Assembly (NCBI GenBank): GCA_964508365.1
Contig: CAZDTP010000042.1
Coordinates: 1-35,659 of the forward strand
Reading direction: 5' to 3'
Length of the DNA: 35,659 nt
Source of the DNA: an uncultured archaeon
GTDB lineage: Archaea; Asgardarchaeota; Lokiarchaeia; Sigyniarchaeales; SOKP01
A model generated the notes under the pieces. That model ran no database searches. It saw only the letters and a program-made list of their open reading frames with translations, and had not been told where the DNA came from. Positions 7,613 to 26,503 of the stretch are shown here, in pieces. Each line of letters begins with the position of its first letter. Within the stretch, counting starts at the first letter, position 1. Both the position numbers and the translations under genes were made by a program.

Positions 7613-8764
7613 ATGACTATAAGTAGTCTAATTCAAAAAGAATTTAATAGAATCAAAAGTGACAAGAGAACTCTAATTTTATTGTTCACAATCCCAATGT
7701 TATTAATTGTAATTTTTGGACTAACTACTGGTGTCGGTCCTACTAAATTTTTTACAGCGGCAATCATAAGCTGTGATGAAATGCCTACTTACGATGATTT
7801 TCCCTCAAATTCTACCGAATTTGATAACGTTTTTATCTCGATAATAGAGCATAATTCAACAACATGGGACCTTCATAGTCAGTATAATTCCACGAATATT
7901 GAAGAATATTACCAAGCTTTTAATCGCTGTTTGTATTTGTTAAAAAACGAGCTTATAGATGTTTTCATTATACTTCCACCAAATTTTTCAGAGTCGATTG
8001 CATACAACTTTAATCCTGTATTAATCTATTACATCGATGGTTCTGACTCTAGCGCTGTTGGTGCGATAGAAGTTACAATCCAGGAACCACTCGCTTTATT
8101 TAGGGTAGAAATAAACATGATAGAAAATTTTACTATAATGGTCCCTCACCTGGAATTTGGTGTACCATCGTGGGAATCTCAATTATTAAACTATGCATTA
8201 TCTCTTATTTTACCAATTATTATAGTTGGAACTACTATGAACCTTACATCCTTATCTATTGTTTCAGAGGGTCCACTCCCAAGGATGCTTATAACTCCAA
8301 CAGCAAAAAGAGATATAATTTTCAGTAAGCTAATAGCAAACATAGTAGTAATGTTTATGCAAGCCACAGAAATATTCATTATGACCTCATTTTTTGGTTT
8401 GTATAGCTTAGGCTCACTATTTGATTTCTATCTAGTGTTAATGTTGATTGGGTTTACTGGAGTAGCTATAGGTTTATTTATTTCAGCGATTAGTCCAACG
8501 GAACAGGGAGCTAATCAGATGTATCTAATGATGTTTATCGTCATTATTATTTTCTCAGGAACTTTATTATCCGCAGAATCCTTAGGAGGAGCAAAATTCC
8601 TTGCCGATTTTCTACCGTTAAGTCATGCTTCAGTATTGATTACTGATATCACTCTAAGAGGATTACCACTAAATTTAGAACATGTGTTTTCTATGCTAAT
8701 GATTTCTTTAGTCTTTCTAACTTTTGCCTACATTGCTTATAAATTTAAAAAACTGGAGGTATAG
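7613..8764 (+). CDS. ABC-2 type permease with a large extracellular loop (YhhJ/ABCA-like)
   Basis: KEFNRIKSDKRTLILLFTIP N-terminus, 1 TM + ECD + 5 TM, ITP..K.DII.SK motif, PLSHA; several N-x-S/T sequons in the ECD. Confidence 0.9.
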   Translation: MTISSLIQKEFNRIKSDKRTLILLFTIPMLLIVIFGLTTGVGPTKFFTAAIISCDEMPTYDDFPSNSTEFDNVFISIIEHNSTTWDLHSQYNSTNIEEYYQAFNRCLYLLKNELIDVFIILPPNFSESIAYNFNPVLIYYIDGSDSSAVGAIEVTIQEPLALFRVEINMIENFTIMVPHLEFGVPSWESQLLNYALSLILPIIIVGTTMNLTSLSIVSEGPLPRMLITPTAKRDIIFSKLIANIVVMFMQATEIFIMTSFFGLYSLGSLFDFYLVLMLIGFTGVAIGLFISAISPTEQGANQMYLMMFIVIIIFSGTLLSAESLGGAKFLADFLPLSHASVLITDITLRGLPLNLEHVFSMLMISLVFLTFAYIAYKFKKLEV

Positions 8765-8824: not shown

Positions 8825-10000
8825 TTGTATCTAAAGAACAGTAGTATAAGGTTACTTAACCAAATTAAAAAAGAATTTCGTCTTTTATGGACAGATAAAT
8901 TTAACATTTTTATAGCGTTAATTGTACCTCCTCTTGTTGTAGTTTTAATAGGAGTAACTTCTGGTAGTCCTGGAAAGCTTGCAATTCCTATTGATTGTGT
9001 CGTTGTTTCCTATGATTCAAACACTTATATTGAAGAAAATAATTTCACAGAGTCTACCTTGGATGATTATAATCTTAAATATATCGAGGCCGTTAATTCT
9101 TCAGATTTATTAAATCTTGTCCAATTTTTTAACGCTACTGAGGAGATATATGCGATGGAAACCGCAAGAAGTTACATGAATTCTAAAAGGATTAATATTA
9201 TTATAGCAATTCCTGTCGACTTTTCTGAATTAATAAGTTGGGGGTATCCAGGTTTAATCGATTGCATAACAGATTCATCAGATATCCAAAAAATTCAAGT
9301 TAACTTAAATGCTGTTTACGATTCGATAAAAATTTTTGTCTCCCAAAATAATTTAACGCCTCAATTTGAACTCAATGGCTTTGAGGAATTCACGATTCCT
9401 GAAAACTATAGCTCTGGATATAATAATACCATGGTATTAGTTTTATCTTTTATGATAATAGGCGTTGGCATGGTCTCAACAATCTTAATTATCGTTCAAG
9501 AAAAGCCCGCTGCAAGGCTGTTACTCACGCCAGTTAAAAGAATTGAAATACTATTAGCTAAATATATAACTTACATTAGCGTTCTAATCGTTCAAAATAT
9601 TTCGCTCGTAATGACCGCCTTAGGCTTTGGTTTATATTTAGTAGGAACAGTATTTGATTTATTTCTAGCTTTATTTATTTTAGGTTTTGCCGGTCTTGCA
9701 ATTGGTATTTTTATTAGTACCTTAAGTAAAACTAAAACCCAAGCAAATCAGTTATTTTTTGCAACCTTTCTTGTTTTGATTCTTTTAAGTGGTATTTTCA
9801 TCCCCATTGAAGCTATGCCCATATATCTACAAGCTATAGCCTACGTGCTTCCCTTATCTCATGGAAACCCTTTAATTACAGGAATAATCACTAAAGGAAA
9901 ATCGGTATTTGGTTTTGATTTCTTCACTCTTTTAGGAGTAAGTGTTGTTCTCGTAGTGTTGTCATTTATTTTGTTTCAGAGAAGAAAATACGAGGTGTGA
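8825..10000 (+). CDS. ABC-2 type permease (paralog of the upstream gene); start uncertain, possibly 8765-8771
   Basis: KKEFRLLWTDK, LTPVKRIEILLAK, LLSGIFIPIEAMP, LPLSH. Confidence 0.9.
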   Translation: MYLKNSSIRLLNQIKKEFRLLWTDKFNIFIALIVPPLVVVLIGVTSGSPGKLAIPIDCVVVSYDSNTYIEENNFTESTLDDYNLKYIEAVNSSDLLNLVQFFNATEEIYAMETARSYMNSKRINIIIAIPVDFSELISWGYPGLIDCITDSSDIQKIQVNLNAVYDSIKIFVSQNNLTPQFELNGFEEFTIPENYSSGYNNTMVLVLSFMIIGVGMVSTILIIVQEKPAARLLLTPVKRIEILLAKYITYISVLIVQNISLVMTALGFGLYLVGTVFDLFLALFILGFAGLAIGIFISTLSKTKTQANQLFFATFLVLILLSGIFIPIEAMPIYLQAIAYVLPLSHGNPLITGIITKGKSVFGFDFFTLLGVSVVLVVLSFILFQRRKYEV

Positions 10001-10001
10001 T

Positions 10002-11036
10002 ATGGAGACTACCGATATTTCGAATAAGACAATGGTACTAGTAGAAAATTTAGATGTTATATTCGGAAAAAAGCGTATAGTTCATGATGTCTCATTTAAT
10101 GTAGAAGAGGGGGAGATCATTGGGATGTTTGGAATATCCGGAGCTGGAAAGACAACTATAATAAGGGTTTTAACCTGCCAGATTGAAAAAAAAAACTGGA
10201 ATGGCAAAGTATTAGTTACTGGTCTATCTCCTAGTAAAAAGGGAAACTACTCAAAAATTTTAAGCAATATCGGTTATGTACCTCAATTAGAACTGCTAAA
10301 TCTATATTTTGAACTAAATCCCATGGTTAATGTTGAAATTTTTACCTCTACTTATGGAATGGATAAAAGAGAAGCTAAAATAACTGCTGAAAAATTATTC
10401 AACATATTAGATATCCCCAAAGATACTTGGAAAAAAAGAGTTAAAAAGATGAGCGGCGGGGAAAAAAAGCGCTTATCAATGGCTATTGGATTAATACACC
10501 ATCCAAAAGTCTTATTTCTTGATGAACCCACAACTGGAGTTGATGCATCTAAACGCTACGATATTTTAAGCTATCTAAAGAAGTTAAACCAGCAACTAAA
10601 TACGACAATGTTCATAATTACTCATGATTTAGAAGCAGCGCTAATATGTGATAAAAGTGCTATTCTAAGGGAAGGGAAATTGCTTGAATTCGATACACCG
10701 CAAAAGCTTATAAACTCATTACCCAGTAATGGTTTGGTAGCAAGAATTTCAATTGAAAATTTAAACCAAGAGGTAATAAAGACCATTCAAAATTATCCTT
10801 CCATAGAAAAAGTGTTAAGGGTTGGAAACGAGACTATCGAAGTTTTAATGGATGATTTTGAAACTAACTTACCTAAATTGATGAAGTTCTTGTTTGAAAA
10901 AAAGTTAAATATTTATTCCATGAGCAGAGATGTTGCTAATTTTAGAAGATACTTTCAAATCAGAATACAAGAAGAGGAAGAAAAAGAAAACAGCAAAAAT
11001 CGTTCTGAACTATTGAATGAAGGTGACATTCCATAA
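10002..11036 (+). CDS. ABC transporter ATP-binding protein (DrrA/ABC-2 type) with a C-terminal regulatory domain
   Basis: Walker A GISGAGKTT, signature MSGGEKKR, Walker B LFLDEPT, H-switch ITHD; GAGGTG SD overlapping the upstream stop. Confidence 0.95.
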   Translation: METTDISNKTMVLVENLDVIFGKKRIVHDVSFNVEEGEIIGMFGISGAGKTTIIRVLTCQIEKKNWNGKVLVTGLSPSKKGNYSKILSNIGYVPQLELLNLYFELNPMVNVEIFTSTYGMDKREAKITAEKLFNILDIPKDTWKKRVKKMSGGEKKRLSMAIGLIHHPKVLFLDEPTTGVDASKRYDILSYLKKLNQQLNTTMFIITHDLEAALICDKSAILREGKLLEFDTPQKLINSLPSNGLVARISIENLNQEVIKTIQNYPSIEKVLRVGNETIEVLMDDFETNLPKLMKFLFEKKLNIYSMSRDVANFRRYFQIRIQEEEEKENSKNRSELLNEGDIP

Positions 11037-11077: not shown

Positions 11078-14000
11078 ATGTTACTCATTATTTTAGTAGG
11101 AACACCAACTCTATCATTAGTTTTAATTAATATTAGATGGACATATTTTATTAGTGAAACAGATGTAAGTAAAGCTAAAAACCTTGCGACAGTATTTACA
11201 AGTTCGCATCATAATCAAATAGGGTTGTTTGTGGAGCCTGATATTGATTCAAATTATAGAGCAATAGATTCCACAAATTTTACATTTACTAACATGTATG
11301 TCCCAGATTTAGTAGATCCTAACAATAACACCAATATACAATCCTTTCTAAAAGATATATTCTTTGATTATATATTTGAAAAACAAAATTACGATGGTTC
11401 TTATTCAGACATCGCGGGTTTAGGGAACCTATTTTCTACTTATATGGCTATTGAAACCCTGAAAATAGCGAATATCTCGTACCTCGAGAGAAGAGTTCAT
11501 CTTGGAGAAACAGATAATATAGCGAAGTATTTACTAAACTCTCTTAATGGTGGTGGATGGGGTTTTAGGTTTAATCAATTTCTAAACGATTCAGATATAA
11601 TTTCTACTTTTAGCGCTATTGAATTATCTTACAGCATATCTGAAACTTCTATTATTACAAACAAGAAAGTCGGAGAATTTATAAATTCTACATGGCTTGG
11701 AGGTAGTTATAGTTTAACTAACAACTCCTTAATTGTCACTCCTGAAACGACATTCTACGGCGTAAGAGCTTATTTAAGGATGAACATGTCCTATACTATA
11801 GGTGATTTAATAGCAATTGGGGCATATTTTAGTTTATTATATAATCCTCTTGACGGCGGTTATTTTAATCCCGAAACTAGCAGTTCGGATATACAATCTA
11901 CCTATTATTCTATATCTACCCTTGAGTTATTGGGAATTCCTTTATTAAATCCATCTAAAACAATGGAATTTGTGTTGAATTGCTCAAATATTAATGGAGG
12001 TTTTGGATTCCGTCCAAATACTTCAATATCAGATTTTAATTCGGGTTGGGCAGCAATGAAATCAATTGGAATATTAACACCGATGCTTACTCTCACAGTT
12101 GCAGATTCTAATTTAATAAAACAGATATCTGTTCAATATTATAATTGGTTGCTCTTTTTTCAAGCCAGGAATGGTTTGTTTGGCAAAATTACACTAGAGT
12201 CTAACTATTTTGGTGTTTTAACTTATCATACTATGGGATATTTAGATTCGATGCAAACTCCTCAATTTCAAGCGGTAAAAAATAAAATATTAGATTTTGT
12301 ATGGACATGCTATAATCTATATGATGGAGGATTTGGGTCTGAACCGGGACAGAACGCAACATTATTTTCTACTTATTGCGGTATTAAGCTTTTACAGATG
12401 ATTACACCGCGAGATCGTCCATGGTTTCAAACAGGACCTATCAATGTATTAAATGCGACTAGAACTTTCCTTGCTAACCTACAAAATCCTGATGGAGGAT
12501 TTAGAGTAGGTGATGATATAGACTATTTATTTTCTCTTTTTGGAGCTTTTTCCGTACTTTTTACGGATTTAATAAATATTAATGCATCTACTGTAGAAAG
12601 TACATATTGGGCATTAATTTCTTTAGAGCTGATAAACGGACTTCATATGATTCAATACAACAATTTTACGCATTGGGTAAGATCATGTCAAAACGCAGAC
12701 GGAGGATTTTCTATTGTTATAGGGTTTCACAGCGATATCATTTCGACATATTATGGACTCCAAATATTTAAAGAAGAATTCGTTCAAGGACCAATTTCAA
12801 AAATGTCAGCGATTAATTTCTTAATTACATCGCAAACTTCGGATGGTAGTTTCTCTTTACTGCCCATGATGGGTGATTTTTTAGACTTACCATCCTCATT
12901 TCTTACGACATACGTGGCCTCTAAAGCGTTATATGATTATGATTTTCAACCAGGAAACATTAAAAATGCCCTTTCTTGGTTTTCTGATTGTATCAGCGGT
13001 CGTACGGGAGGGGTTGGAGATAATCCAAATTTTGGAGCAGATTTAAGAAATTCTCCTTATGGAATCATAATAATTGATGAATTAAAATATGATCAAAGTT
13101 TCGATTCGAAACCGTGGAATGCGCTATTAATATATATTTTATTAACTGAAGCGGGTATTTTAAGCGTTTATGTATTGCTTATAATTCGCAAAAAAATTTC
13201 TTTGATAAAGCGTATTATAGAAAAAGTAGGTCTGGGAGGGAAAATTACACCATCCTATCTACAAAGGTTTCCAGCAATTCATTGTGAAAATTTCAGCGTA
13301 TATGCGGGTGGTAAGTTAATTGTTGATTCTGTTTCAATGAAGGTAGATCACGGCCAAATTCTGGGAATTTTAGGTGAAAGTGGAGCAGGTAAATCCACCT
13401 TTATTAAGGGTTTATTGGGGATGAGAAAAATAACCGGATTCTGCCAAATCTTTGGTTTAAATATAAATAAAAGAACTTCTAAAAAGATACGACCGATATA
13501 TGGGTATGTTCCTCAAGATCTAGGCAAAATTTATCATGAGTTCACGGTTCTTGATAATTTACTCTCATTTGGGAGTCAGTACGGTCTAACTGAGCAAGAA
13601 ATAATAAGCAGGTCTAAAAGACTCTTGCGAAGTTTAGAGATAGAAGATAAAATGAATGAATTAGTTAAAAATCTTTCAGGAGGTCAAAAACGTAGAGTCA
13701 GTATCGTAATCGGTTTAATCCATTCACCTATCTTTCTCATTTTAGACGAACCTACTTCGGGATTAGATCCGATAATTCGTGAAAATTTATGGCTAGCTTT
13801 AACTAAAATTAATGAGCAATTTGGTACAACATTAATTGTGATAACTCACTATCCAGAAGAATCTCGATTTTGTAATAGGGTTGCGATTTTTGGTAGGAAT
13901 AGAGGCGTTATAGATTTTGGGAAGCCTAAAGAACTATTAGCTCAGTTACCAGGCAAAGGACGCTCAATTGAATTATGTTTTAACACTAATCAAGAAAATA

Positions 14001-14224
14001 TGGTCCAAAGATTAGAATCTATAGATGGAATAGAAAATGTATTAGAAAATAAAGTAGGAACGGAATATTCAATATTCACTAACCTAAATGTCAAATCTCT
14101 TATTATTAAGATTGAAAACGAAGTAGGTAAGGATACAATCCAGGAATTAAAGCAAATCGATTCAAAAATGGAGCAATTTTTTAGATATAAATTAATCGAG
14201 GTACCAAAAATTGATAAGCTCTAG
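11078..14224 (+). CDS. Fusion: signal anchor + about 11 prenyltransferase/squalene-cyclase-type (alpha/alpha barrel) repeats + TM helix + intact ABC ATPase
   Basis: Repeats QNYDGSY, NGGGWG, WLGGSY, YNPLDGGY, CSNINGGFG, FQARNGLFG, CYNLYDGGFG, LQNPDGGF, CQNADGGF, QTSDGSF, CISGRTGGV, each followed by a D/T-x-x-S/T-T-Y/F-like helix; TM res 681-703; GESGAGKST, LSGGQKRR, LILDEPT, ITHY. Confidence 0.88.
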   Translation: MLLIILVGTPTLSLVLINIRWTYFISETDVSKAKNLATVFTSSHHNQIGLFVEPDIDSNYRAIDSTNFTFTNMYVPDLVDPNNNTNIQSFLKDIFFDYIFEKQNYDGSYSDIAGLGNLFSTYMAIETLKIANISYLERRVHLGETDNIAKYLLNSLNGGGWGFRFNQFLNDSDIISTFSAIELSYSISETSIITNKKVGEFINSTWLGGSYSLTNNSLIVTPETTFYGVRAYLRMNMSYTIGDLIAIGAYFSLLYNPLDGGYFNPETSSSDIQSTYYSISTLELLGIPLLNPSKTMEFVLNCSNINGGFGFRPNTSISDFNSGWAAMKSIGILTPMLTLTVADSNLIKQISVQYYNWLLFFQARNGLFGKITLESNYFGVLTYHTMGYLDSMQTPQFQAVKNKILDFVWTCYNLYDGGFGSEPGQNATLFSTYCGIKLLQMITPRDRPWFQTGPINVLNATRTFLANLQNPDGGFRVGDDIDYLFSLFGAFSVLFTDLININASTVESTYWALISLELINGLHMIQYNNFTHWVRSCQNADGGFSIVIGFHSDIISTYYGLQIFKEEFVQGPISKMSAINFLITSQTSDGSFSLLPMMGDFLDLPSSFLTTYVASKALYDYDFQPGNIKNALSWFSDCISGRTGGVGDNPNFGADLRNSPYGIIIIDELKYDQSFDSKPWNALLIYILLTEAGILSVYVLLIIRKKISLIKRIIEKVGLGGKITPSYLQRFPAIHCENFSVYAGGKLIVDSVSMKVDHGQILGILGESGAGKSTFIKGLLGMRKITGFCQIFGLNINKRTSKKIRPIYGYVPQDLGKIYHEFTVLDNLLSFGSQYGLTEQEIISRSKRLLRSLEIEDKMNELVKNLSGGQKRRVSIVIGLIHSPIFLILDEPTSGLDPIIRENLWLALTKINEQFGTTLIVITHYPEESRFCNRVAIFGRNRGVIDFGKPKELLAQLPGKGRSIELCFNTNQENMVQRLESIDGIENVLENKVGTEYSIFTNLNVKSLIIKIENEVGKDTIQELKQIDSKMEQFFRYKLIEVPKIDKL

Positions 14225-15917
14225 AGATATAGAGTTGGAACGAATCAGGTTAAAAATACTAGATGCTGTACGTTTCTCTAAGCGTTTCTGGATGACATTC
14301 AGAGAAAAAACATTTGGAATTGCTTCGATTATTAATTTAATCTATAAAAAGTCGTTTTTCGAAGTTTTGTTTTTTACTAATAGAGATGTTATTGAAAAGG
14401 GAGTACCTTTATTAAAGATATACACACCTCTAGAAGATGAAATTGATTTTAATGAAATTATATTTGAACCAGATTTTGACGAAGACGGATTGATAAATCC
14501 CGTAAAAATTATCCATAGAATGAGAAGGATTATTAGTTCGGAATTCCAAAGTCACCTAATAATATTAAATACTGAAATTAAACTAGTTGACGATAGATTT
14601 GAGAATTATCAAATTAAAGCTAACCCGTACGACCGAGAGATAAGAATCTCTTACTCTGATTTTGATGTTAAACTTAAAATTAATTTAGAAAAATATCCGT
14701 TTTTACCAACCTTTTCTTTTTCAAGATCATTATCTAAAATTATCCCTGAGAGAGAATTTACAGAAGATGTGATGATTAAAAATTGGGACACAGAAAATCC
14801 CCCTCACATTTATGAAATTGTTGAAAGAATATGTGATATTGTCTCTGCAAGAGTAAAAATAAAAAAGTTAAAAGAAGATTCTCAATATTTAGTTTTAAAT
14901 CGTGTTACCTTAGGCAATATCATTGATAAATTATCATTCAAAATTCACAGAGGAAAATCGATAGGAATAATATTTGATGAAAGAAGCTTAACCAAAATTG
15001 ATCCTAGGATGGAATTAATGATTTTATTCGACACCATAGCGGGTTCACAACACGACTATTCTGGTTCAATCGAAATTTTTGGAAAACCTACTCTGTTGTT
15101 AAGTCAATCTGAGAAAGAAAAAATCTTTATTCTACCTCAAGCATACGATTCCACAATAAGAAAAATGAAGATCAAGAAAGCCATTCAATATAAAATTGAT
15201 TTACACGAAATTTACAAGAAAAAGAAGGATAGCTTCAGTTTAATGTTAAAAAATGCTGGTTTTACTCAACATTTAGATGAGTTAATGGAAGATTTTTTGA
15301 AGACAAGGTCGTATAAAATCAATCGCCAGAAAGTATATATAAAAAAAGTGTTAGAATCAACAGGATTACTAAATAAGAAAAATAAGAAATTCTCAAAGTT
15401 GACTCCCTTAGAATATCTTCTTTTCTCAATTACCAGGGCACTAATCCAAACACCTACAATAATCATGTTTTCTATACCATTTGGGATTTTAGGCAAACTC
15501 GAATATGAAAAGTTTAATTCATACATGGATAAAATCAAAGAAAATTTTCATGTAGTTCTAATATTCCATGGTCCGGAAGAAATTATATCAAAATGCGACC
15601 AAATTCTAATGATTACAAAAAATATTTCAAAAATAGGAACCATTAAAGACTACATTGAAGAATTACCTCAATATGGTGAAATTTTGAGTATTGAATTGAA
15701 CAATCCAGACGATTCCTTAATTCATAAACTTAAACAAATGAAGGAAATAGATGTATTAATTGAAGAAAGAAAAAATGAGAAATTTAAAATCTTCATAAAA
15801 AATAGTATTACGGATGTAATAATCCAAATCACAGAACTATTGGGGCCAACCCTTTATAGTTTTAAAAGATTCACCGCCTCCATCGGTGATTATATGGAGT
15901 TTATTGAAAATAGATGA
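14211..15917 (+). CDS. Degenerate (pseudo) ABC ATPase with an N-terminal UBC/UEV/RWD-like region
   Basis: NBD skeleton recognisable (LSFKIHRGKSIGII; KKFSKLTPLEYLLFSITRALIQTPTIIMFSIP; LIFHGPEEI...CDQILMI) but Walker A, signature and Walker B DE are replaced; C-terminal domain resembles those of the two upstream ATPases; KINLEKYPFLP...KNWDTENPPHIYEIVERI upstream. Confidence 0.7.
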   Translation: MISSRDIELERIRLKILDAVRFSKRFWMTFREKTFGIASIINLIYKKSFFEVLFFTNRDVIEKGVPLLKIYTPLEDEIDFNEIIFEPDFDEDGLINPVKIIHRMRRIISSEFQSHLIILNTEIKLVDDRFENYQIKANPYDREIRISYSDFDVKLKINLEKYPFLPTFSFSRSLSKIIPEREFTEDVMIKNWDTENPPHIYEIVERICDIVSARVKIKKLKEDSQYLVLNRVTLGNIIDKLSFKIHRGKSIGIIFDERSLTKIDPRMELMILFDTIAGSQHDYSGSIEIFGKPTLLLSQSEKEKIFILPQAYDSTIRKMKIKKAIQYKIDLHEIYKKKKDSFSLMLKNAGFTQHLDELMEDFLKTRSYKINRQKVYIKKVLESTGLLNKKNKKFSKLTPLEYLLFSITRALIQTPTIIMFSIPFGILGKLEYEKFNSYMDKIKENFHVVLIFHGPEEIISKCDQILMITKNISKIGTIKDYIEELPQYGEILSIELNNPDDSLIHKLKQMKEIDVLIEERKNEKFKIFIKNSITDVIIQITELLGPTLYSFKRFTASIGDYMEFIENR

Positions 15918-15954
15918 AGTAATTAATTGGATTATAAAAGAGGATATAAAAAAA

Positions 15955-16761
15955 ATGTTAAAAAGTTTATATATTTTAGATCAAAACGGAATTTTGTTAT
16001 ATTCCAAAGAGTTCATTAGGGAACAGCAATACGACGACAATATCTTAATAGGATTTTTCACTTCAATCGCTAATTTTAGTCGGGAAGCTTTAGGAACGGC
16101 TGTAAAAAATGTTGACCTCGGAGAAAATAATAAACTTATTCTCGCTCCAATCGAGGATGAAGGTCTACTTGGGGCTGCAATTATAAGTTCAAATGATAAT
16201 AACGAATTAGTAACAAAAATAATTAGAAATATCTTGCAAGAATTTATTGACTCCTATTCACCTGATTACGATCACGAAAAAATCATTAATGAAGAGATGG
16301 AGAAAATTATTCAAGATGTTTTAAGAACTAAAATGATTCATTCACCTATAATAAGGATCGCACTTTCTTGGCTAATTATCGCTCCATTAACGATACTTTT
16401 AGTTTTTGCTAGCATTAATTTAACACTTTTTCTCTATATGACTTTCGATCTCAATCAATATTTCACACCCGATCAAATGTTTTCGAGATTTTTCCCTGCG
16501 TTAATTCTTTTATCTACTGGAAACATTGTAATACTATTTCTGTTCCCAAATTTACTTCTTGGCTTTTTATCTCCTAATAGAATTATCGCTGTAGTGAATT
16601 CGATTATTTATTTAGTTGTTACAATTATTTTATTTGCTTACTCATCTGAACCTGCTTTTGTTTATATTATCATAGGTCATTTACCTTTAACATTGATTTT
16701 CTCACTGTTTTTCTTATTTATCGGAATCAGATCGTCGTCAAAGAGATTTTTGAAAAAATAA
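15955..16761 (+). CDS. Longin-like domain protein with about 4 C-terminal TM helices
   Basis: MLKSLYILDQNGILLYSKEF...ILIGFFTSIANFSREALGTAVKNVDLG...LGAAII...IIRNILQEFIDSY matches the longin beta-beta-alpha-beta-beta-beta-alpha pattern; ATG 15955 follows GAGGA; four hydrophobic segments follow. Confidence 0.72.
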   Translation: MLKSLYILDQNGILLYSKEFIREQQYDDNILIGFFTSIANFSREALGTAVKNVDLGENNKLILAPIEDEGLLGAAIISSNDNNELVTKIIRNILQEFIDSYSPDYDHEKIINEEMEKIIQDVLRTKMIHSPIIRIALSWLIIAPLTILLVFASINLTLFLYMTFDLNQYFTPDQMFSRFFPALILLSTGNIVILFLFPNLLLGFLSPNRIIAVVNSIIYLVVTIILFAYSSEPAFVYIIIGHLPLTLIFSLFFLFIGIRSSSKRFLKK

Positions 16762-16915: not shown

Positions 16916-18448
16916 TTGAAAGGTGATAACGCACAGAATAGGGGTTTCGAACCAATTATAAAAAAATACGAAAAAGAAAAAGCACTCGTTCTGGAGAGTA
17001 TTTCGGAGCTTATCGTCTTTCAAGATAAAAAGCAAAATATTTTATGGTTAAATAAAGCAGCAGCAGATTCCGTTGAAAAGACACAAGAAGATTTAATAGG
17101 AGGGATATGTTACTCCGTTTGGCACAATTCTAATAAAATTTGTGTTAATTGCCCTGTAGAACTCTCGTTAAAAATAGGTGAACCTACATCTGGTGAAATT
17201 ACAACTCCACATGGGAGAACTTTTTTCATAAAAGGTTTTCCCGTAAGGGATAATGAAGGAGAAATAATAGGAGCAGTTGAAGTTGCCAGGGAAATAACCA
17301 AACTCAAACAAACTGAAAAAAATTTAATTGATTCTGAAGAAAAGTATCGGAACCTATTTGAGAGTTCCCCTTATTCTATCGGCATATTTGATTTAGACGG
17401 AACTTTAATTGATTGTAATAAAGCTACAGCGAAGCTTTTATCTACTCATAATTTAGAAAATGATATTATTGAAAAGAATTTTAGAGAATTTTGGGGACAT
17501 CATGAGAAAAATAAGCCACTGATCCCATTATTCGAAGGTATCCTTAATAAGCTAAAAAAAGACGGAGAAACATTAGAATTTGAATTTCCTATATATCGAT
17601 CAGCGGGAGGTGTATTATGGGCTCACGCTATCGCTTCATTACTAAAAATAGGAAACGAGGAAAGAATTCGATTTATTGTTCAAGACATTACAGAAAGAAA
17701 ACTTGCCGAGCAAGAATTAGAAACATCGGAAATAAAATATCGAGAAGCGTATAATCGTATTAATTTTTACAAAGACATCTTTTCTCACGATATTAACAAT
17801 ATCTTTCAAAATATCCAAACATCAGTAGAACTTATCGATTTAAATGAGGAACAATCGATTGGCATTAAGAAAGACGATGAATTGTTGGATATTATTAGAA
17901 AACAGATCAAGAGAGGGACCAATTTAGTATCAAACATAAGAAGATTATCGGAAATTGAAAATAAAGACTTAACCTTACAAAAGGAAGAAATTATTAAAGT
18001 TTTAAAAGATGTTATAGACGCTTTAATTAAAGTATTTAAAAATAGAGAGATAAATATTCAGATTTATAATGAACCAAAAGAAGTATATGTTAAAGTAAAT
18101 GAACTTTTACCAGATATATTTGAAAACTTATTAATCAACGCTGTAAGACATAATCAAAATTCAATTATTGAGATTCTTATCAAGTTTTCAAGGGTAGTGA
18201 AGGATGGAGTCAATTTTATCAAACTCGAATTTATTGATAATGGAATTGGTATTTTCCCTGAAATGAAAGAAAAAATCTTTCAGAGAGATCTGGTTGAGAG
18301 AAAGGATAAAATTGGGTTAGGACTTGGTTTAACACTTGTTAAGAAGATAGTCGGAAACTATAACGGCCAAATTTGGGTGGAGGATAAGGTTGCAGGAGAC
18401 CATTCCAAAGGAAGTAATTTTATAATTATATTACCGGAGGAGGTTTAA
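16916..18448 (+). CDS. Soluble PAS-PAS histidine kinase
   Basis: Two PAS/PAC repeats (VAREITKLK; VQDITERK), H-box FSHDINN, N-box FENLLINAVRHN, G1 DNGIGI, G2 GLGLGL. Confidence 0.92.
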   Translation: MKGDNAQNRGFEPIIKKYEKEKALVLESISELIVFQDKKQNILWLNKAAADSVEKTQEDLIGGICYSVWHNSNKICVNCPVELSLKIGEPTSGEITTPHGRTFFIKGFPVRDNEGEIIGAVEVAREITKLKQTEKNLIDSEEKYRNLFESSPYSIGIFDLDGTLIDCNKATAKLLSTHNLENDIIEKNFREFWGHHEKNKPLIPLFEGILNKLKKDGETLEFEFPIYRSAGGVLWAHAIASLLKIGNEERIRFIVQDITERKLAEQELETSEIKYREAYNRINFYKDIFSHDINNIFQNIQTSVELIDLNEEQSIGIKKDDELLDIIRKQIKRGTNLVSNIRRLSEIENKDLTLQKEEIIKVLKDVIDALIKVFKNREINIQIYNEPKEVYVKVNELLPDIFENLLINAVRHNQNSIIEILIKFSRVVKDGVNFIKLEFIDNGIGIFPEMKEKIFQRDLVERKDKIGLGLGLTLVKKIVGNYNGQIWVEDKVAGDHSKGSNFIIILPEEV

Positions 18449-18814
18449 CTGGTTTCAATTTTTATCGTGGAAGACGATTTGTCCTTACAAAAGTTATATG
18501 AGATGATGATTTTCACATTTGGATTTAAAGTTGTTGGAAAAGCGAACAACGGAAAGGAAGCAATTGAAAAATTTTATGCACTAACTAATAAACCCGATGT
18601 AATTTTAATGGACCACCGTATGCCCGTTCAAAATGGAATAGATACAGCGTTAATATTGTTAAAACTAAAAAAACCTCCGAAAATCATCTTCACAAGTGCG
18701 GATATATCTATTAAAAACCGAGCGTTAGCAATAAACGGTTTAACATTTTTAGAAAAACCATTTACTGTGAAGGCTTTACATGATGAGATTATAAAAGTAT
18801 TAGGGATAAGTTAA
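18449..18814 (+). CDS. Stand-alone response regulator (CheY-like receiver); start extended from the track's 18467 to CTG 18449
   Basis: (L/M)VSIFIVEDD beta1/acidic pocket, phospho-Asp in VILMDHRMP, FTSAD, EKPF; GGAGGAGGT SD at 18436-18444. Confidence 0.88.
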   Translation: MVSIFIVEDDLSLQKLYEMMIFTFGFKVVGKANNGKEAIEKFYALTNKPDVILMDHRMPVQNGIDTALILLKLKKPPKIIFTSADISIKNRALAINGLTFLEKPFTVKALHDEIIKVLGIS

Positions 18815-22090: not shown

Positions 22091-25000
22091 TTGACTAACG
22101 TGGAAAATAAGACGGCTTACCCATATATAACAGAATTTAAAAAGGAGCCGTTTAAGTCTTTTGTTTTAACAAATAGAAAGGATATCGGTAATTTCTATTT
22201 AAGTAATTACAATAATGTTCTAGAATTATATCAGGATCATAATAAGAACTTAATTGAAGAATCGTCTTTAAGTTTGGAGGATATTTTTTGGTTTCTCCTT
22301 CTGAGGAAATATCTCAAACAAAAAGTGGACGACCATAGTGAAGGTTTCTTAGAATTTATAAAAAAGTGTGAAGTTGAGATAATTGAAAAAGATCAATTGG
22401 GATTCAAATCATCGCCTTATTCAGTAAAAAGACCTGATATTTGGTCAACATACCATGCTCTAGCAAGTTTAGAATTATTAGGAGTGCTCCAAAAGTACTT
22501 ATCGTCTAAAGGCCAAGATATTGTTATTGAAGAAATTAAGAATTTTATTTATGATCATAAAAGAAATAATGGATTCTTACATTGCCTTGACAAACAATGC
22601 GAATTATGTAATCAAGGACCTTTAGGAAAGACTTTTTACTATGTTGTTGAAAATCTCATGCTTATCGGTGTTGATGTAAGGGTTTTCATAGAGCAATTCC
22701 GTCAATATTTAAGAGAAAGAAAAAAAGATGTATCATTAATTTTTAAACTCCTCAGTTTAAAATTCTTTGATTTAGATTCAGATGTAAAAGATAAGGAAAT
22801 TCAGCATTTCTATCAATTTCAACAGGCAAATGGAGGTTTTGTCATAGATTCAATTGAAGGAGATATTGAAACTACATTTTGGTGCGTAAATCTTCTAGAT
22901 ATATACTCATGGCTTATAGATTACAACTCAGCAAGAATTTATTCTTTTATCGCTGAGAAATTAGACTCATTATTGAAAGATAAAGAAAGATGGAATTTAA
23001 TCGCGTTAAGAAATGTTACTAAACTAGTAATCTTGCTATCTATTATCTGGAATCGTTTTATCGAAGAAATCGAAAGAGTCGTATTTAAGCGGTTAGAGAT
23101 TTATAATTTTATCGATTTAAACCAGATAAAAACTACCTTTGGGTTAAACCATGGAGTAGAGGAGATTGTACTCTATATCAACCTCAATTATATGTTTAGT
23201 TTGAAGAATATCGATATTACTTCGGAATTTAATAAATACCTACAAAATTTAAGTCATGGTAAAAAGATAATAATCCAAGAAGTTTACGAACAATTAAGAA
23301 ATAATAGTATTGTATCACTTTCGGATATTTACAAAAAATATAAAAGTTCCTACCAACAGGAACCTGTGAAATTAAAAGAAGACATCTTTCCGATCATATA
23401 TGACTTAATAAGCAACCACTTTTTTGAAGGGGAGATCAGAGCAAAAAAGGCTTATTTATTCAAAACAAAATTCTACTTTTGTTTAGATTTTTTATACAAA
23501 AACATAATTATTTCCGATAAGGAAATTAACACCGAAAGATTGTTTGAAGAAAAAGCTAAACTGAAGGAAATTAAAAATGATATTTACAATATGACTTTGA
23601 AGCTTAAAAACACTATCCCTCTTATCAAAGAAGAAATAGAATCATATCTTTTGATAGACGAAGTTGATTTCGCTAAACAAAGGTTGAAGTTTGTATTGAG
23701 AGATTCATTAATGGAAGCAGATTTTCTTAATAAAAACATTGAAACATCTTTCAATCAAGATCTTATATACATCAACCTACAAGCTGCTTTAGGTTCTGAA
23801 ATATCTCAATGGAACAAGTCATACTCTTTATTGCAAAAGCGTTTAGGTGAATTAAATAATTATCTCCTAGAAAAGATCCAAGAGATGGAAAAATTAAAAA
23901 AATTTAGCATTATTTTAGACGAACTAGATAATAGAATATACGATATTCAGGATCAGATAAATCGCGAGATAGATTCTTTTAAAAATTACATTACGGAAGT
24001 TCTTGAGAAGGGTTATGATGAAGAAAAATTAAATCTTATTATAAATGCATTTAATAAAATAGCTCAGGTTGTAAGCAAATACGATTCAGTTATTTACAAA
24101 GTCTCGCATCAAATTACATCTAAAGAGAAAAAGATTGCAAAGAACCATAAGAAAATAATATATAAATGGGTTAATTTTAAAGAGAACTTTGATTTGATTT
24201 TTGCTGATTATACTAATGGTTTTCAGTTTTTCAACGAATTAAATAGACAGATAGGAAATGTTAAAGATAATATACAAGAAGGAATTTTGCAAATTAAAGA
24301 GGACGCTAAAAATAGTGCGTCTCAAAATCAATATCAAGACGCATTTAATATTATCAAGATGGAAGCGGATAACCTACTAAAAGAAAAAACAAAGGAAATT
24401 CAAAGCTTAAAATTAAATGTTAAAAAAAACACTTCCTTTAAACAGAAACTATTCCCGCTTTATAAATATATAAATGAAAAGCTCGACAGTCTGGAAGAAA
24501 ACATTATTGAGTTCATAGCCGAACAGGAGCAATTTTTAAAAGAAAAGGTTATAGAAGAAAGAAATAGAGCAAGTGTTGAGGATTTTGATAGTTTTGTTTC
24601 CGATACTATCCAAAATTTTAAGAATAAGTTAGAAAATTACAGGAAAAACATTGAGCAAAACAAAACAAATAAAATTCCGAATGTTATTAGTGGTTTTGAT
24701 GCAATTCTAATTGATTTTAACGAAAATAATAAGATTTTTTCTAAAAAGCTAATAAATCTAAAAATCATTATCCCAGATCTTGATGAAAGTTCGATAAAAA
24801 TAATACAATGGGAGAAATTTAAAGTTTTTATTAGTGATGAAGTTGATAAACTGAAGGAAGAATATGTGAATGGCATTATTTCTCAAGAAATTATACTCAT
24901 GAGTGAGGAGGAGCACACAGACACAATTAGTATAAAAAAACTAGCCGATAAGCTAAAAATCAAATGTAAAGCGATAATTCCAAGAATTAAAGACATGATA

Positions 25001-26503
25001 GAGGTGTCTAAATTGCAAGGTGATTTACTTGAAGATAAAAAAGAACTAATAGTTCACACTGAAGCTTATCATAAATATAGAGAATTAAAAAATTTTACAG
25101 AAAATAGAATTATTAAGCAAACACAAGAGGCAGTAGGAAAATTATTAGCCCTTTACGATTCGTGTATAAAAAACAAAACTCTTGGAGTAAATTTATTAGA
25201 AATTGAGAATAGAATTAAAGATTTAAGTGATTTGAAGGAATCTATTACCAACCAATACAACACTAAGACAAAAGAGTTAAATGTTGACGAGAATAGATTA
25301 GAGAATATGGAACTGATTAAGAATCTAAAAGCGGTTATAGATAATAATGAGATAGCGATTTTGAATATAAAAGAAAATTTAGTGATTTTTGAGGACTTAC
25401 AAATATTCATTGTCGATGTGTTAGATAATGTAAAAATCGAAATAGAAAACCAACTAACTAAAACTTTTGATAATGTTGAGAGAGCTGAGTCCCATGCAAA
25501 GATGAGGGAAATTCTTGAAGGGAGAAAGGAGCGTGTTATAATTAGACTAAAACAGGTTGACGAAAAAATCGAGAATAGATTGAAATCGATCATTAGTATA
25601 TCTTATGAATCAAGGAAATTTGAGACCGAAGCGAGAGAATTCTACGTTAAGAAAAAGAATGTGATTAAAAAAAGAGTAGAAGAAAGAGTTCAAGCAATAA
25701 ATGATAAAATAAATTCTTTAAGGTTTGAGACGGATCGAGGTAAATTATTAACCACGATTACCAACAAAAATACCCATTTATCTCAATTATTAGGAACATT
25801 GCAGACGAGGGTTGAAGATTATATCGAAACAGGGCAGTATAAGAGAGCCTACTTAAAAGTTAGTAAAAAAAAGGTCTCTATCGAGCAGGAAATTAAAAAT
25901 ACAAGTAAAGAAATAAAAGATTTAATTAGGACATTTAACCGAAATTCGAACGATTTCGAAACCAAAAATATTCACATCATAGATGATTTTAACCGCTTTA
26001 TTAAAGAATTTAACGACATTTTAAGAGAGAAAGTAAACACATTAGAAGAATTAATCATAAAGTCATATGTAGAAATGGCAATAAAAGCCGTTGCTAATGA
26101 ATTCTTAACCTTAAGTTTCTTGCAGAATGAATTGAAGATAAAAAAACCACTTATTCAAAAAAACCTAATTTCTCTGATTAGTGCTGGAAAATTGAAAGGG
26201 AAATACGATCCTCAGATCGGTTTATACTACGAAAACCCGGAAGTTCTGAATAAGCTTGATGAAAAAGAGTTAGAAGTTATAAAGAAAATGAATTTCCGTG
26301 TATATATATTTATGAGGCGTTTAAAGAATTTTACAAACCAATATGGTTCCATTATTGCTTTCTTTGCATCTCTCCTTACAATATCTTATTATATCTTCCG
26401 AATTACAGGAGAAAACCCAATTACGATAATGATTCCTATTATTTTGACATTAGTAGTACTTGGTTACCTTCTCTTTAAGAAAAAGAAAGATGAAAAGATT
26501 TGA
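22091..26503 (+). CDS. 1470-aa multidomain protein: prenyltransferase-like repeats, winged helices, long coiled coil, PCI-like winged helices, C-terminal 2-TM anchor
   Basis: LGF...PDIWSTYHALASLELLG, KRNNGF, FQQANGGF...GDIETTFW; heptad-rich res ~480-1330; TISIKKLADKLKI...MIEVSKLQG and LTLSFLQNELKI...LISAGKLKGKYD; two hydrophobic helices then KKKK. Confidence 0.8.
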   Translation: MTNVENKTAYPYITEFKKEPFKSFVLTNRKDIGNFYLSNYNNVLELYQDHNKNLIEESSLSLEDIFWFLLLRKYLKQKVDDHSEGFLEFIKKCEVEIIEKDQLGFKSSPYSVKRPDIWSTYHALASLELLGVLQKYLSSKGQDIVIEEIKNFIYDHKRNNGFLHCLDKQCELCNQGPLGKTFYYVVENLMLIGVDVRVFIEQFRQYLRERKKDVSLIFKLLSLKFFDLDSDVKDKEIQHFYQFQQANGGFVIDSIEGDIETTFWCVNLLDIYSWLIDYNSARIYSFIAEKLDSLLKDKERWNLIALRNVTKLVILLSIIWNRFIEEIERVVFKRLEIYNFIDLNQIKTTFGLNHGVEEIVLYINLNYMFSLKNIDITSEFNKYLQNLSHGKKIIIQEVYEQLRNNSIVSLSDIYKKYKSSYQQEPVKLKEDIFPIIYDLISNHFFEGEIRAKKAYLFKTKFYFCLDFLYKNIIISDKEINTERLFEEKAKLKEIKNDIYNMTLKLKNTIPLIKEEIESYLLIDEVDFAKQRLKFVLRDSLMEADFLNKNIETSFNQDLIYINLQAALGSEISQWNKSYSLLQKRLGELNNYLLEKIQEMEKLKKFSIILDELDNRIYDIQDQINREIDSFKNYITEVLEKGYDEEKLNLIINAFNKIAQVVSKYDSVIYKVSHQITSKEKKIAKNHKKIIYKWVNFKENFDLIFADYTNGFQFFNELNRQIGNVKDNIQEGILQIKEDAKNSASQNQYQDAFNIIKMEADNLLKEKTKEIQSLKLNVKKNTSFKQKLFPLYKYINEKLDSLEENIIEFIAEQEQFLKEKVIEERNRASVEDFDSFVSDTIQNFKNKLENYRKNIEQNKTNKIPNVISGFDAILIDFNENNKIFSKKLINLKIIIPDLDESSIKIIQWEKFKVFISDEVDKLKEEYVNGIISQEIILMSEEEHTDTISIKKLADKLKIKCKAIIPRIKDMIEVSKLQGDLLEDKKELIVHTEAYHKYRELKNFTENRIIKQTQEAVGKLLALYDSCIKNKTLGVNLLEIENRIKDLSDLKESITNQYNTKTKELNVDENRLENMELIKNLKAVIDNNEIAILNIKENLVIFEDLQIFIVDVLDNVKIEIENQLTKTFDNVERAESHAKMREILEGRKERVIIRLKQVDEKIENRLKSIISISYESRKFETEAREFYVKKKNVIKKRVEERVQAINDKINSLRFETDRGKLLTTITNKNTHLSQLLGTLQTRVEDYIETGQYKRAYLKVSKKKVSIEQEIKNTSKEIKDLIRTFNRNSNDFETKNIHIIDDFNRFIKEFNDILREKVNTLEELIIKSYVEMAIKAVANEFLTLSFLQNELKIKKPLIQKNLISLISAGKLKGKYDPQIGLYYENPEVLNKLDEKELEVIKKMNFRVYIFMRRLKNFTNQYGSIIAFFASLLTISYYIFRITGENPITIMIPIILTLVVLGYLLFKKKKDEKI

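Follow-up and report, generated by a model that had tools for sequence, protein, structure and literature searches.

An ABC ATPase of Asgard archaea fused to a predicted outside double toroid of the prenyltransferase fold, encoded in a conserved putative transporter operon

The 35,659-nt window analysed here (contig CAZDTP010000042.1, assembly GCA_964508365.1; positions are those of the forward strand) comes from an uncultured Asgard archaeon and has a G+C content of approximately 31%. At 11078–14224 (+) it contains a single open reading frame of 1048 aa, in which an N-terminal anchor helix is followed by a 655-aa ectodomain, a strong transmembrane (TM) helix at residues 681–705, and an intact ATP-binding cassette (ABC) ATPase. 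The gene is the fourth of six, in the order permease, permease, plain ATPase, fusion, dead ATPase paralogue, and small membrane protein (Table 1). A Pfam scan of the fusion finds Prenyltrans (PF00432) in two stretches (E 7.5e-31; score 108 bits, cut-off 26.5) and ABC_tran at residues 750–894 (E 5.4e-25), and no domain besides these; the Prenyltrans–ABC ATPase fusion that had been proposed from the sequence alone (the original prediction) is thus real, with both domains in one frame.

The repeats of the ectodomain are readily located. Nine strict x-x-x-[DN]-G-[GS]-[FWY] motifs occur, at residues 103, 155, 256, 303, 413, 469, 538, 586 and 640, and two degenerate ones lie at residues ∼203 and ∼360, which together match the eleven repeats counted originally. 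Upstream of these there is a conserved twelfth, N46-Q-I-G-L-F51. A large number of homologues begin, in their database records, at the position matching V52 and are thereby 51 residues shorter (997 aa); as N46, G49, F51 and the first TM helix (TM1), all upstream of V52, are conserved, these starts have probably been miscalled.

Table 1. Features of the fusion gene and of its operon.
Feature	Position	Strand	Basis
ABC-2 permease 1, 383 aa; TM1, outside loop of ∼150 aa with sequons, TM2–6	7613..8764	+	Pfam ABC2_membrane_3/ABC2_membrane; hydropathy; conserved first operon gene
ABC-2 permease 2, 391 aa; topology as permease 1	8825..10000	+	Pfam; conserved in operon
Plain ABC ATPase (NBD1), 344 aa, motifs intact; presumed partner of the fused ATPase	10002..11036	+	Pfam ABC_tran
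Fusion protein, 1048 aa (TM1, double toroid, TM2, ABC ATPase)	11078..14224	+	
TM1, residues 1–21, signal-anchor-like; conserved G-T/A-P and Asn at outer end	11078..11140	+	Kyte-Doolittle peak 2.28; 51-homologue alignment
N-terminal helical hairpin, residues 28–65, with the N46-x-x-G49-x-F51 repeat; would complete the C-terminal barrel	11159..11272	+	Foldseek spans; conserved columns
Putative inserted (gamma-like) alpha/alpha toroid, residues 85–392, six repeats	11330..12253	+	
Putative C-terminal part of the outer (beta-like) toroid, residues 393–672, five repeats; best conserved part of the ectodomain	12254..13093	+	
Polar motif G-D648-x-P-x-F652-G653-x-D655-x-R657-N658, ∼25 residues before TM2	13019..13051	+	Alignment; position in fold from repeat register
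TM2, residues 681–705, then RKK; sole crossing between ectodomain and ATPase	13118..13192	+	Kyte-Doolittle 2.30; in 129/129 homologues
ABC ATPase core, residues 733–956	13274..13945	+	Pfam, NCBIfam, motifs
C-terminal domain past the ATPase core, residues 957–1048; retained also in NBD1 and the dead paralogue	13946..14221	+	Pairwise alignments; GldA-family match to residue 1036
568-aa protein: N-terminal domain of ∼235 aa, then dead ATPase paralogue	14211..15917	+	Weak ABC ATPase matches; conserved in operon
Small membrane protein, 291 aa; soluble N-terminal domain of ∼140 aa and ∼4 TM helices; last operon gene	15886..16761	+	Hydropathy

An alignment of 44 ectodomains, 27–74% identical to that of the reference fusion, was used to generate an AlphaFold2 model of this region, with a mean pLDDT (per-residue confidence) of 91.0 and a pTM (predicted TM-score) of 0.90. 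In Foldseek comparisons with this model the beta subunits of RabGGTase and GGTase-3 rank first (E 3e-9, TM-score by target 0.68–0.70). The top 50 single-barrel matches span the model from residues 1–9 to residues 640–655 but align just 261–317 residues, and residues 85–392 fold alone as a full barrel, which together argue that one barrel is nested within the other. Proteins that contain both barrels align over more than one barrel holds, with 455 residues of squalene-hopene cyclase (SHC) and 467 of oxidosqualene cyclase (OSC) matched over model positions 1–2 to 646–648. The model thus confidently predicts two alpha/alpha toroids of the prenyltransferase-beta type. The first toroid seems to be formed by residues 85–392 and the second by the hairpin at 28–65 together with residues 393–672, an arrangement resembling the beta-gamma nesting of class II terpene cyclases and derived from alignment ranges and scores rather than from coordinates. 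Both the folding of the repeats into alpha/alpha barrels and the SHC-like layout that had been proposed for them are borne out by these comparisons. At the sequence level the ectodomain is much closer to prenyltransferases (E 1e-25) than to SHC (E 3e-4), and the ESM Atlas yields generic prenyltransferase-repeat clusters as well as a partial match to actinobacterial double-barrel proteins of ∼595 aa (TM-score 0.48/0.52).

The relationship to both groups of enzymes is one of fold. The class II terpene cyclases SHC (1gsz), OSC (1w6k) and Tpn2 (7xkx) likewise pair two barrels, with one of them apparently set into the other past its first hairpin, and 417–467 residues of these proteins align over both barrels. 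The root-mean-square deviation (rmsd) is however 6.8–7.8 Å, so that the two barrels would be set at a different angle in the ectodomain, which also lacks the DxDD motif. Class II cyclases work from the cytoplasmic side. With the beta subunits of protein prenyltransferases (RabGGTase/GGTase-3, GGTase-I and FTase), which pair with an alpha subunit in the cytosol, the ectodomain shares the alpha/alpha toroid of six helical-hairpin repeats, and it passes the Pfam gathering score of that family. It differs in being outside rather than cytosolic, in being duplicated and nested, in having no conserved Asp/Cys/His zinc site, and in being joined through the membrane to an ABC ATPase. We therefore place the fusion by score in the Prenyltrans fold family and, because the zinc site is not found, not among the prenyltransferase enzymes. 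FTase and GGTase hold C15–C20 isoprenoids in an aromatic-lined funnel.

Loss of the known catalytic residues is evident throughout the 44 ectodomains. None of the columns is His in 90% or more of them, the best being H44 (37/44), H532 (30/44) and H551 (27/44), and in a hidden Markov model alignment, which gives a sequence register and not a structural superposition, Glu and Ser are aligned with Cys240 and His290 of RabGGTase beta. The 44-sequence alignment contains no DxDD column set, with D-x-D-D occurring in a single sequence by chance. The absence of a zinc triad and of DxDD, first seen in the one protein, therefore holds across the 44 homologues, and a catalytic prenyltransferase or terpene cyclase, which would have a conserved His/Cys site or DxDD, was rejected. 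A thioester-type trap, one of the alternatives offered in the original prediction, was rejected too, as a CGEQ-type motif is present in none of the 44 ectodomains and the fold match is weaker. The other, a transcobalamin-like binder, finds no support: transcobalamin and haptocorrin combine an alpha6/alpha6 barrel with a C-terminal beta domain and hold the corrinoid between them, whereas Pfam shows no evident transcobalamin-type C-terminal domain in the fusion, and the one haptocorrin match is weak (rank 50, rmsd 6.6, below the warning level for helical repeats). The whole ectodomain has no such protein in its 50 top-ranking matches, a list that leaves some room for one.

Since the catalytic residues of its enzyme relatives are missing, we infer that the double toroid would act as a binding module. 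Its invariant columns lie mostly in the glycine-rich repeat loops, and the hairpin contributes conserved columns at N46, G49, F51 and E53. The inner helices open with conserved S-T-Y-[YW] motifs. The exception to the glycine-rich pattern is the polar motif shortly before TM2, in which D648 is present in 44, D655 in 43 and R657 in 42 of the 44 sequences, and D648, F652, G653 and N658 fall in invariant columns. We regard this motif as the best candidate for a functional site, be it for binding or for catalysis. By repeat register, as distinct from superposition, N658 would fall at the position of the zinc-ligand His of RabGGTase beta.

A Kyte-Doolittle scan of the fusion shows two hydrophobic regions, residues 1–21 and ∼681–710, the second centred on 681–705 and followed by RKK. 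This second helix, TM2, was found in all 129 homologues scored, with hydropathy scores of 1.64–3.24, and the 15 residues after it contain on average 5.05 Lys and Arg compared to 1.80 in the 15 before it. Because one TM helix separates the ectodomain from the cytoplasmic ATPase, and positive charge follows that helix, the sequence implies that the ectodomain must be across the membrane from the ATPase, that is, outside; the barrels are thus not cytoplasmic, in agreement with the topology first proposed. The N-terminal hydrophobic helix and the TM helix with its RKK were both part of that proposal, although TM1 differs from what was envisaged. In an alignment of 51 homologue N termini, those with longer N termini have a K/R-rich tail ahead of TM1, and as the G-T/A-P motif and Asn of TM1 are conserved as well, it looks less like a generic signal peptide than like an anchor that stays in place. 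The fusion would then have two TM helices, and probably forms a two-helix hairpin in the membrane with the repeats outside.

The glycosylation sequons (N-x-S/T), of which about 12 had been taken to point outside, are less decisive. There are 13 in the ectodomain of the fusion and two in its cytoplasmic part, and across the 129 homologues their density is 2.18 per 100 aa outside and 0.96 inside, a 2.3-fold difference. In the fusion itself, however, the N/S/T-rich composition alone predicts 9.1, which the 13 observed do not clearly exceed (shuffle fraction 0.10), and we treat the sequons as soft evidence for an outside location.

Fusion of the two domains is a property that the relatives found have in common. 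Among the matches listed, all homologues, at least 120 in number, have both domains, and those with a named source are without exception Asgard archaea. Contig-end fragments aside, the ectodomain by itself, searched exhaustively, gives full-length matches solely in proteins of 1042–1153 aa, down to ∼27% ectodomain identity, and beyond about E 1e-37 it matches single repeats only; in the genomes of the phylum, matches covering the whole ectodomain sit in open frames of 1024–1100 aa. No full-length ectodomain match was found in an unfused complete protein among the representatives searched, the shorter matches being fragments or single repeats, and the two domains are thus fused in every full-length relative found rather than split between two genes. 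Within its own genome the fusion is present in a single copy, with no paralogues. The gene is carried by 38 of 300 genomes of the phylum, 33 of them among the 68 of its own family, and by 13 of the 27 of its own genus; it is therefore conserved but accessory, with a patchy distribution even within the genus. We found no paper on the fusion or on relevant Asgard prenyltransferase-like proteins in the literature searched, and public records name the fusion by its two domains only. For the Rab-like GTPases of Asgard archaea, a BLAST search is reported to have found no Rab geranylgeranyltransferase subunits (PMC10933270).

Prenyltrans repeats also occur in unfused archaeal surface proteins, five of which (P0147–P0151) were compared with the fusion. 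A TM helix is present at the C terminus of all five, and a hydrophobic helix at the N terminus of three, which points to a location outside the cell. Unlike the fusion they are without an ATPase, and they match single repeats only (E 1e-21 to 1e-26). The three that were checked lie in other gene contexts, and two of these adjoin 7TM_transglut/ATP-grasp and transglutaminase genes (loci L031, 6001–11360, and L032, 6001–13607). In L032 a neighbouring protein of 1392 aa joins Prenyltrans to 7TM_transglut and ATP-grasp. To judge from these sequences, outside toroids seem to have been joined with at least two kinds of ATP-using, membrane-bound enzyme.

The ATPase of the fusion has a complete set of motifs: Walker A (GESGAGKST), the Q-loop (YVPQ), the signature (LSGGQKRR), Walker B with its Glu (LDEPTSGLD) and the H-switch (THYPEE). 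These are at least 95% conserved in 126 homologues, which extends to the family what had been noted for the single protein and is indicative of strong purifying selection. Among solved structures, the closest by sequence is ABCA3 (E 2.9e-54), followed by ABCA4, ABCA1, ABCA7 and the insect ABCH transporter. The fused ATPase does not reach the NCBIfam cut-offs for named equivalogs or subfamilies, namely those of DrrA (158.8 bits against 312.45), RbbA (145.9 against 1050), NodI (133.4 against 521) and GldA. By sequence comparison it is a member of the ABC-2/DrrA/ABCA group.

The other operon genes are consistent with this assignment. NBD1 (nucleotide-binding domain 1), the product of the gene directly upstream, is 37% identical to the fused ATPase and has ABCA3 and ABCA1 as its closest solved relatives (E 1.3e-43), and TM2–6 of permease 2 match the insect ABCH transporter 8yzp (E 8.2e-9). 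Residues 237–545 of the dead paralogue (its C-terminal ∼310) align with the fused ATPase at 22% identity (E 3e-10); there is no Walker A (no G-x4-G-K-[ST]), the LSGG is replaced by LTPL, and the D-E of Walker B by S-I. No family match was obtained for its N-terminal domain of ∼235 aa. Its start overlaps the fusion stop by 14 nt here and by 10–14 nt in relatives, which suggests that the two genes are translationally coupled. For the small membrane protein, neither Pfam nor NCBIfam gives a family, and its N-terminal domain, compared by sequence with solved structures, matched only designed helical repeats; the gene is present in 17 of 22 relatives' loci, and several of the others end at contig ends.

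The operon is conserved in 22 loci, the exceptions being contig ends, one rearranged order, and three plain ATPases that are short or split. Gene order is maintained in relatives whose fusions are down to 47% identical, and that of the first five genes at 35%. Another distant relative with a fusion 35% identical (L022, 1420–9651) has its genes arranged as ATPase, fusion, permease 1, permease 2, with a dead-ATPase-like gene upstream on the other strand. In L023 (6509–7571), L016 (3497–4177) and L026 (3053–3607) the plain ATPase gene appears to be either divided in two (181 + 169 aa) or short, at 226 and 184 aa, for which frameshift, assembly error and decay are all candidate explanations. In the window the operon is followed by genes for a PAS-PAS histidine kinase and a single-domain response regulator (16916–18814, +). 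Approximately 5 kb downstream of the operon, at 22091–26503 (+), there is a gene whose 1470-aa product matches Prenyltrans weakly at its N terminus (E 2.6e-7), and a 1470-aa protein with the same weak match has the same relative position in L003 (18679–19204), from a genome whose fusion is 58% identical.

Because the conserved operon provides two ABC-2 permeases and a second intact ATPase, its gene content identifies the fusion as a putative subunit of a complete type V transporter rather than a stand-alone receptor, and the receptor-like framing of the ATPase in the original prediction is not sustained. There are parallels both to eukaryotic-type lipid exporters of the ABCA and ABCH groups and to the prokaryotic ABC-2 exporters DrrAB, NodIJ and the RbbA group. 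As in the former, both live ATPases are nearest to the ABCA family, permease 2 matches the ABCH membrane domain, and each permease has a large outside loop between its TM1 and TM2, as ABCA proteins do. As is typical of the ABC-2/DrrA/ABCA group, the ATPase is encoded with ABC-2 type permeases, two of the ABC2_membrane_3 family lying directly upstream; the equivalog cut-offs of DrrA, NodI and RbbA lie above its scores. The operon differs from the ABCA/ABCH systems in that its subunits are separate genes and in that the outside domain hangs on the ATPase by two extra TM helices instead of being part of the permease. The toroid fold is also different from that of ABCA outside domains.

The architecture of the fusion can be regarded as secure. 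As to function, we put at about even the chance that it is one of the two ATPase subunits of a type V exporter and that its toroids, outside the cell, bind or accept hydrophobic cargo, for which an isoprenoid lipid or some lipid-linked molecule is the most plausible candidate. Two different permeases, the plain ATPase and the fusion would make up a heterotetrameric exporter of type V (ABC-2, ABCA/ABCH-like). The fusion would span the membrane twice and display the nested toroids outside, between its two helices and beside or over the outside loops of the permeases, where they would receive or hold the hydrophobic cargo brought out by the pump, and TM2 would tie them directly to the ATPase cycle. 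An isoprenoid or lipid-linked cargo is suggested because the core is nearest to lipid exporters and the fold nearest to proteins that hold isoprenoids, and because the S-T-Y-[YW] openings of the inner helices are conserved and the known catalytic residues are gone.

Contact between the toroids and the permeases was addressed by complex prediction with three chains (the ectodomain and the two permease loops), each supplied as its own alignment, a set-up that differs from that of the calibration. The ectodomain scores 0.56 against the permease loops (0.56, 0.59 and 0.55 in individual runs) and the best control 0.00; the runs share at least 77% of their contacts, and partner pLDDT is at least 86. 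The outcome counts as weak support for contact. In the calibration, the score taken as the mark is one that 58 of 80 solved complexes attain, compared with 2 of 110 mismatched pairs, and scores of 0.60 or lower are seen in just 7 of the 80 solved complexes and in both of the mismatches that pass.

Several points weigh against an exporter with an outside lipid-binding toroid. Complex prediction lends weak support to contact with the permease loops, which does little more than nudge the odds. The direction of export is read solely from family kinship, and the nesting of the barrels, the nature of the cavity and the place of the D648/D655/R657/N658 motif are arrived at indirectly, through the model and the alignments. 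Neither the conserved dead ATPase nor the last membrane protein has a role in the exporter model, and the neighbourhood beyond the six genes gives no clue to a pathway. Presence in 13 of the 27 genomes of the genus fits poorly with bulk export of membrane lipids, and the polar motif, being nearly invariant, might serve catalysis at a new active site instead of binding.

The strongest of the alternatives is that the system works by mechanotransmission, as in MacB, LolCDE and FtsEX, with the ATP cycle moving TM2 and so driving a conformational change in the outside toroids, which would extract, release or remodel a surface molecule with no cargo passing through the permeases. The direct link from ATPase through TM helix to ectodomain is just what such coupling needs, TM helices hold the ectodomain at both ends, the stretch before TM2 is well conserved, and the ATPase appears to be under strong purifying selection. 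However, sequence places the permeases and ATPases in the ABC-2/ABCA/ABCH group and not with MacB/FtsX, and we think this explanation unlikely; it also overlaps with the exporter model, as such lipid exporters hand cargo to outside domains too.

Regulation of a receptor-like kind comes next in likelihood, and is improbable. Here the toroids would sense an outside ligand or the state of the envelope and gate the ATPase, such that the pump runs only with ligand. An ectodomain that appears to be non-catalytic and is linked to the ATPase by one TM helix would suit this role, and the dead ATPase paralogue and the further membrane protein in the operon suggest some form of regulation. With a full transporter set present a separate output is unnecessary though, and the downstream histidine kinase and response regulator are not beside the operon in the flanks of the two relatives checked (L002 and L003).

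Somewhat behind these stands an outside enzyme with a new active site, in which the D648/D655/R657/N658 cluster or the cleft between the barrels acts on the exported molecule, for example a polyprenyl-phosphate-linked glycan. The conservation of the cluster is described above, but there is no catalytic signature of the nearest families, glycoside hydrolase matches are far weaker than those to prenyltransferases, and nothing outside the cell is apparent as an energy source or co-substrate, so we hold this to be quite unlikely. Least credible, and very improbable, is an importer with a tethered capture domain that binds a scarce nutrient such as a corrinoid and passes it to the permeases for uptake, given the weak haptocorrin match, the lack of an evident transcobalamin-type C-terminal domain, and a core that belongs to exporter families.

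ABC transporters normally bear their extra domains on the permease or at the cytoplasmic end of the ATPase, and an ATPase subunit that re-crosses the membrane to display a 655-aa outside domain is an unusual build. The most specific form of the exporter model, in which some Asgard archaea have an ABCA-like exporter of lipids that brings its own acceptor for isoprenoids on the outside, a GGTase-like double toroid driven directly by the ATPase, is doubtful in its entirety. If true, it would represent a new coupling of ATP hydrolysis to lipid hand-off at the archaeal cell surface, and a prokaryotic setting in which a eukaryote-type prenyl-binding fold and an ABCA-type pump work together. The Asgard archaea are the archaeal group nearest to eukaryotes, and in this system the pump core is closest to eukaryotic ABCA lipid exporters and the outside domain to eukaryotic prenyl-binding subunits. 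Should the cargo be an isoprenoid lipid, the fusion would inform the little-known handling of membrane and surface lipids in Asgard cells.

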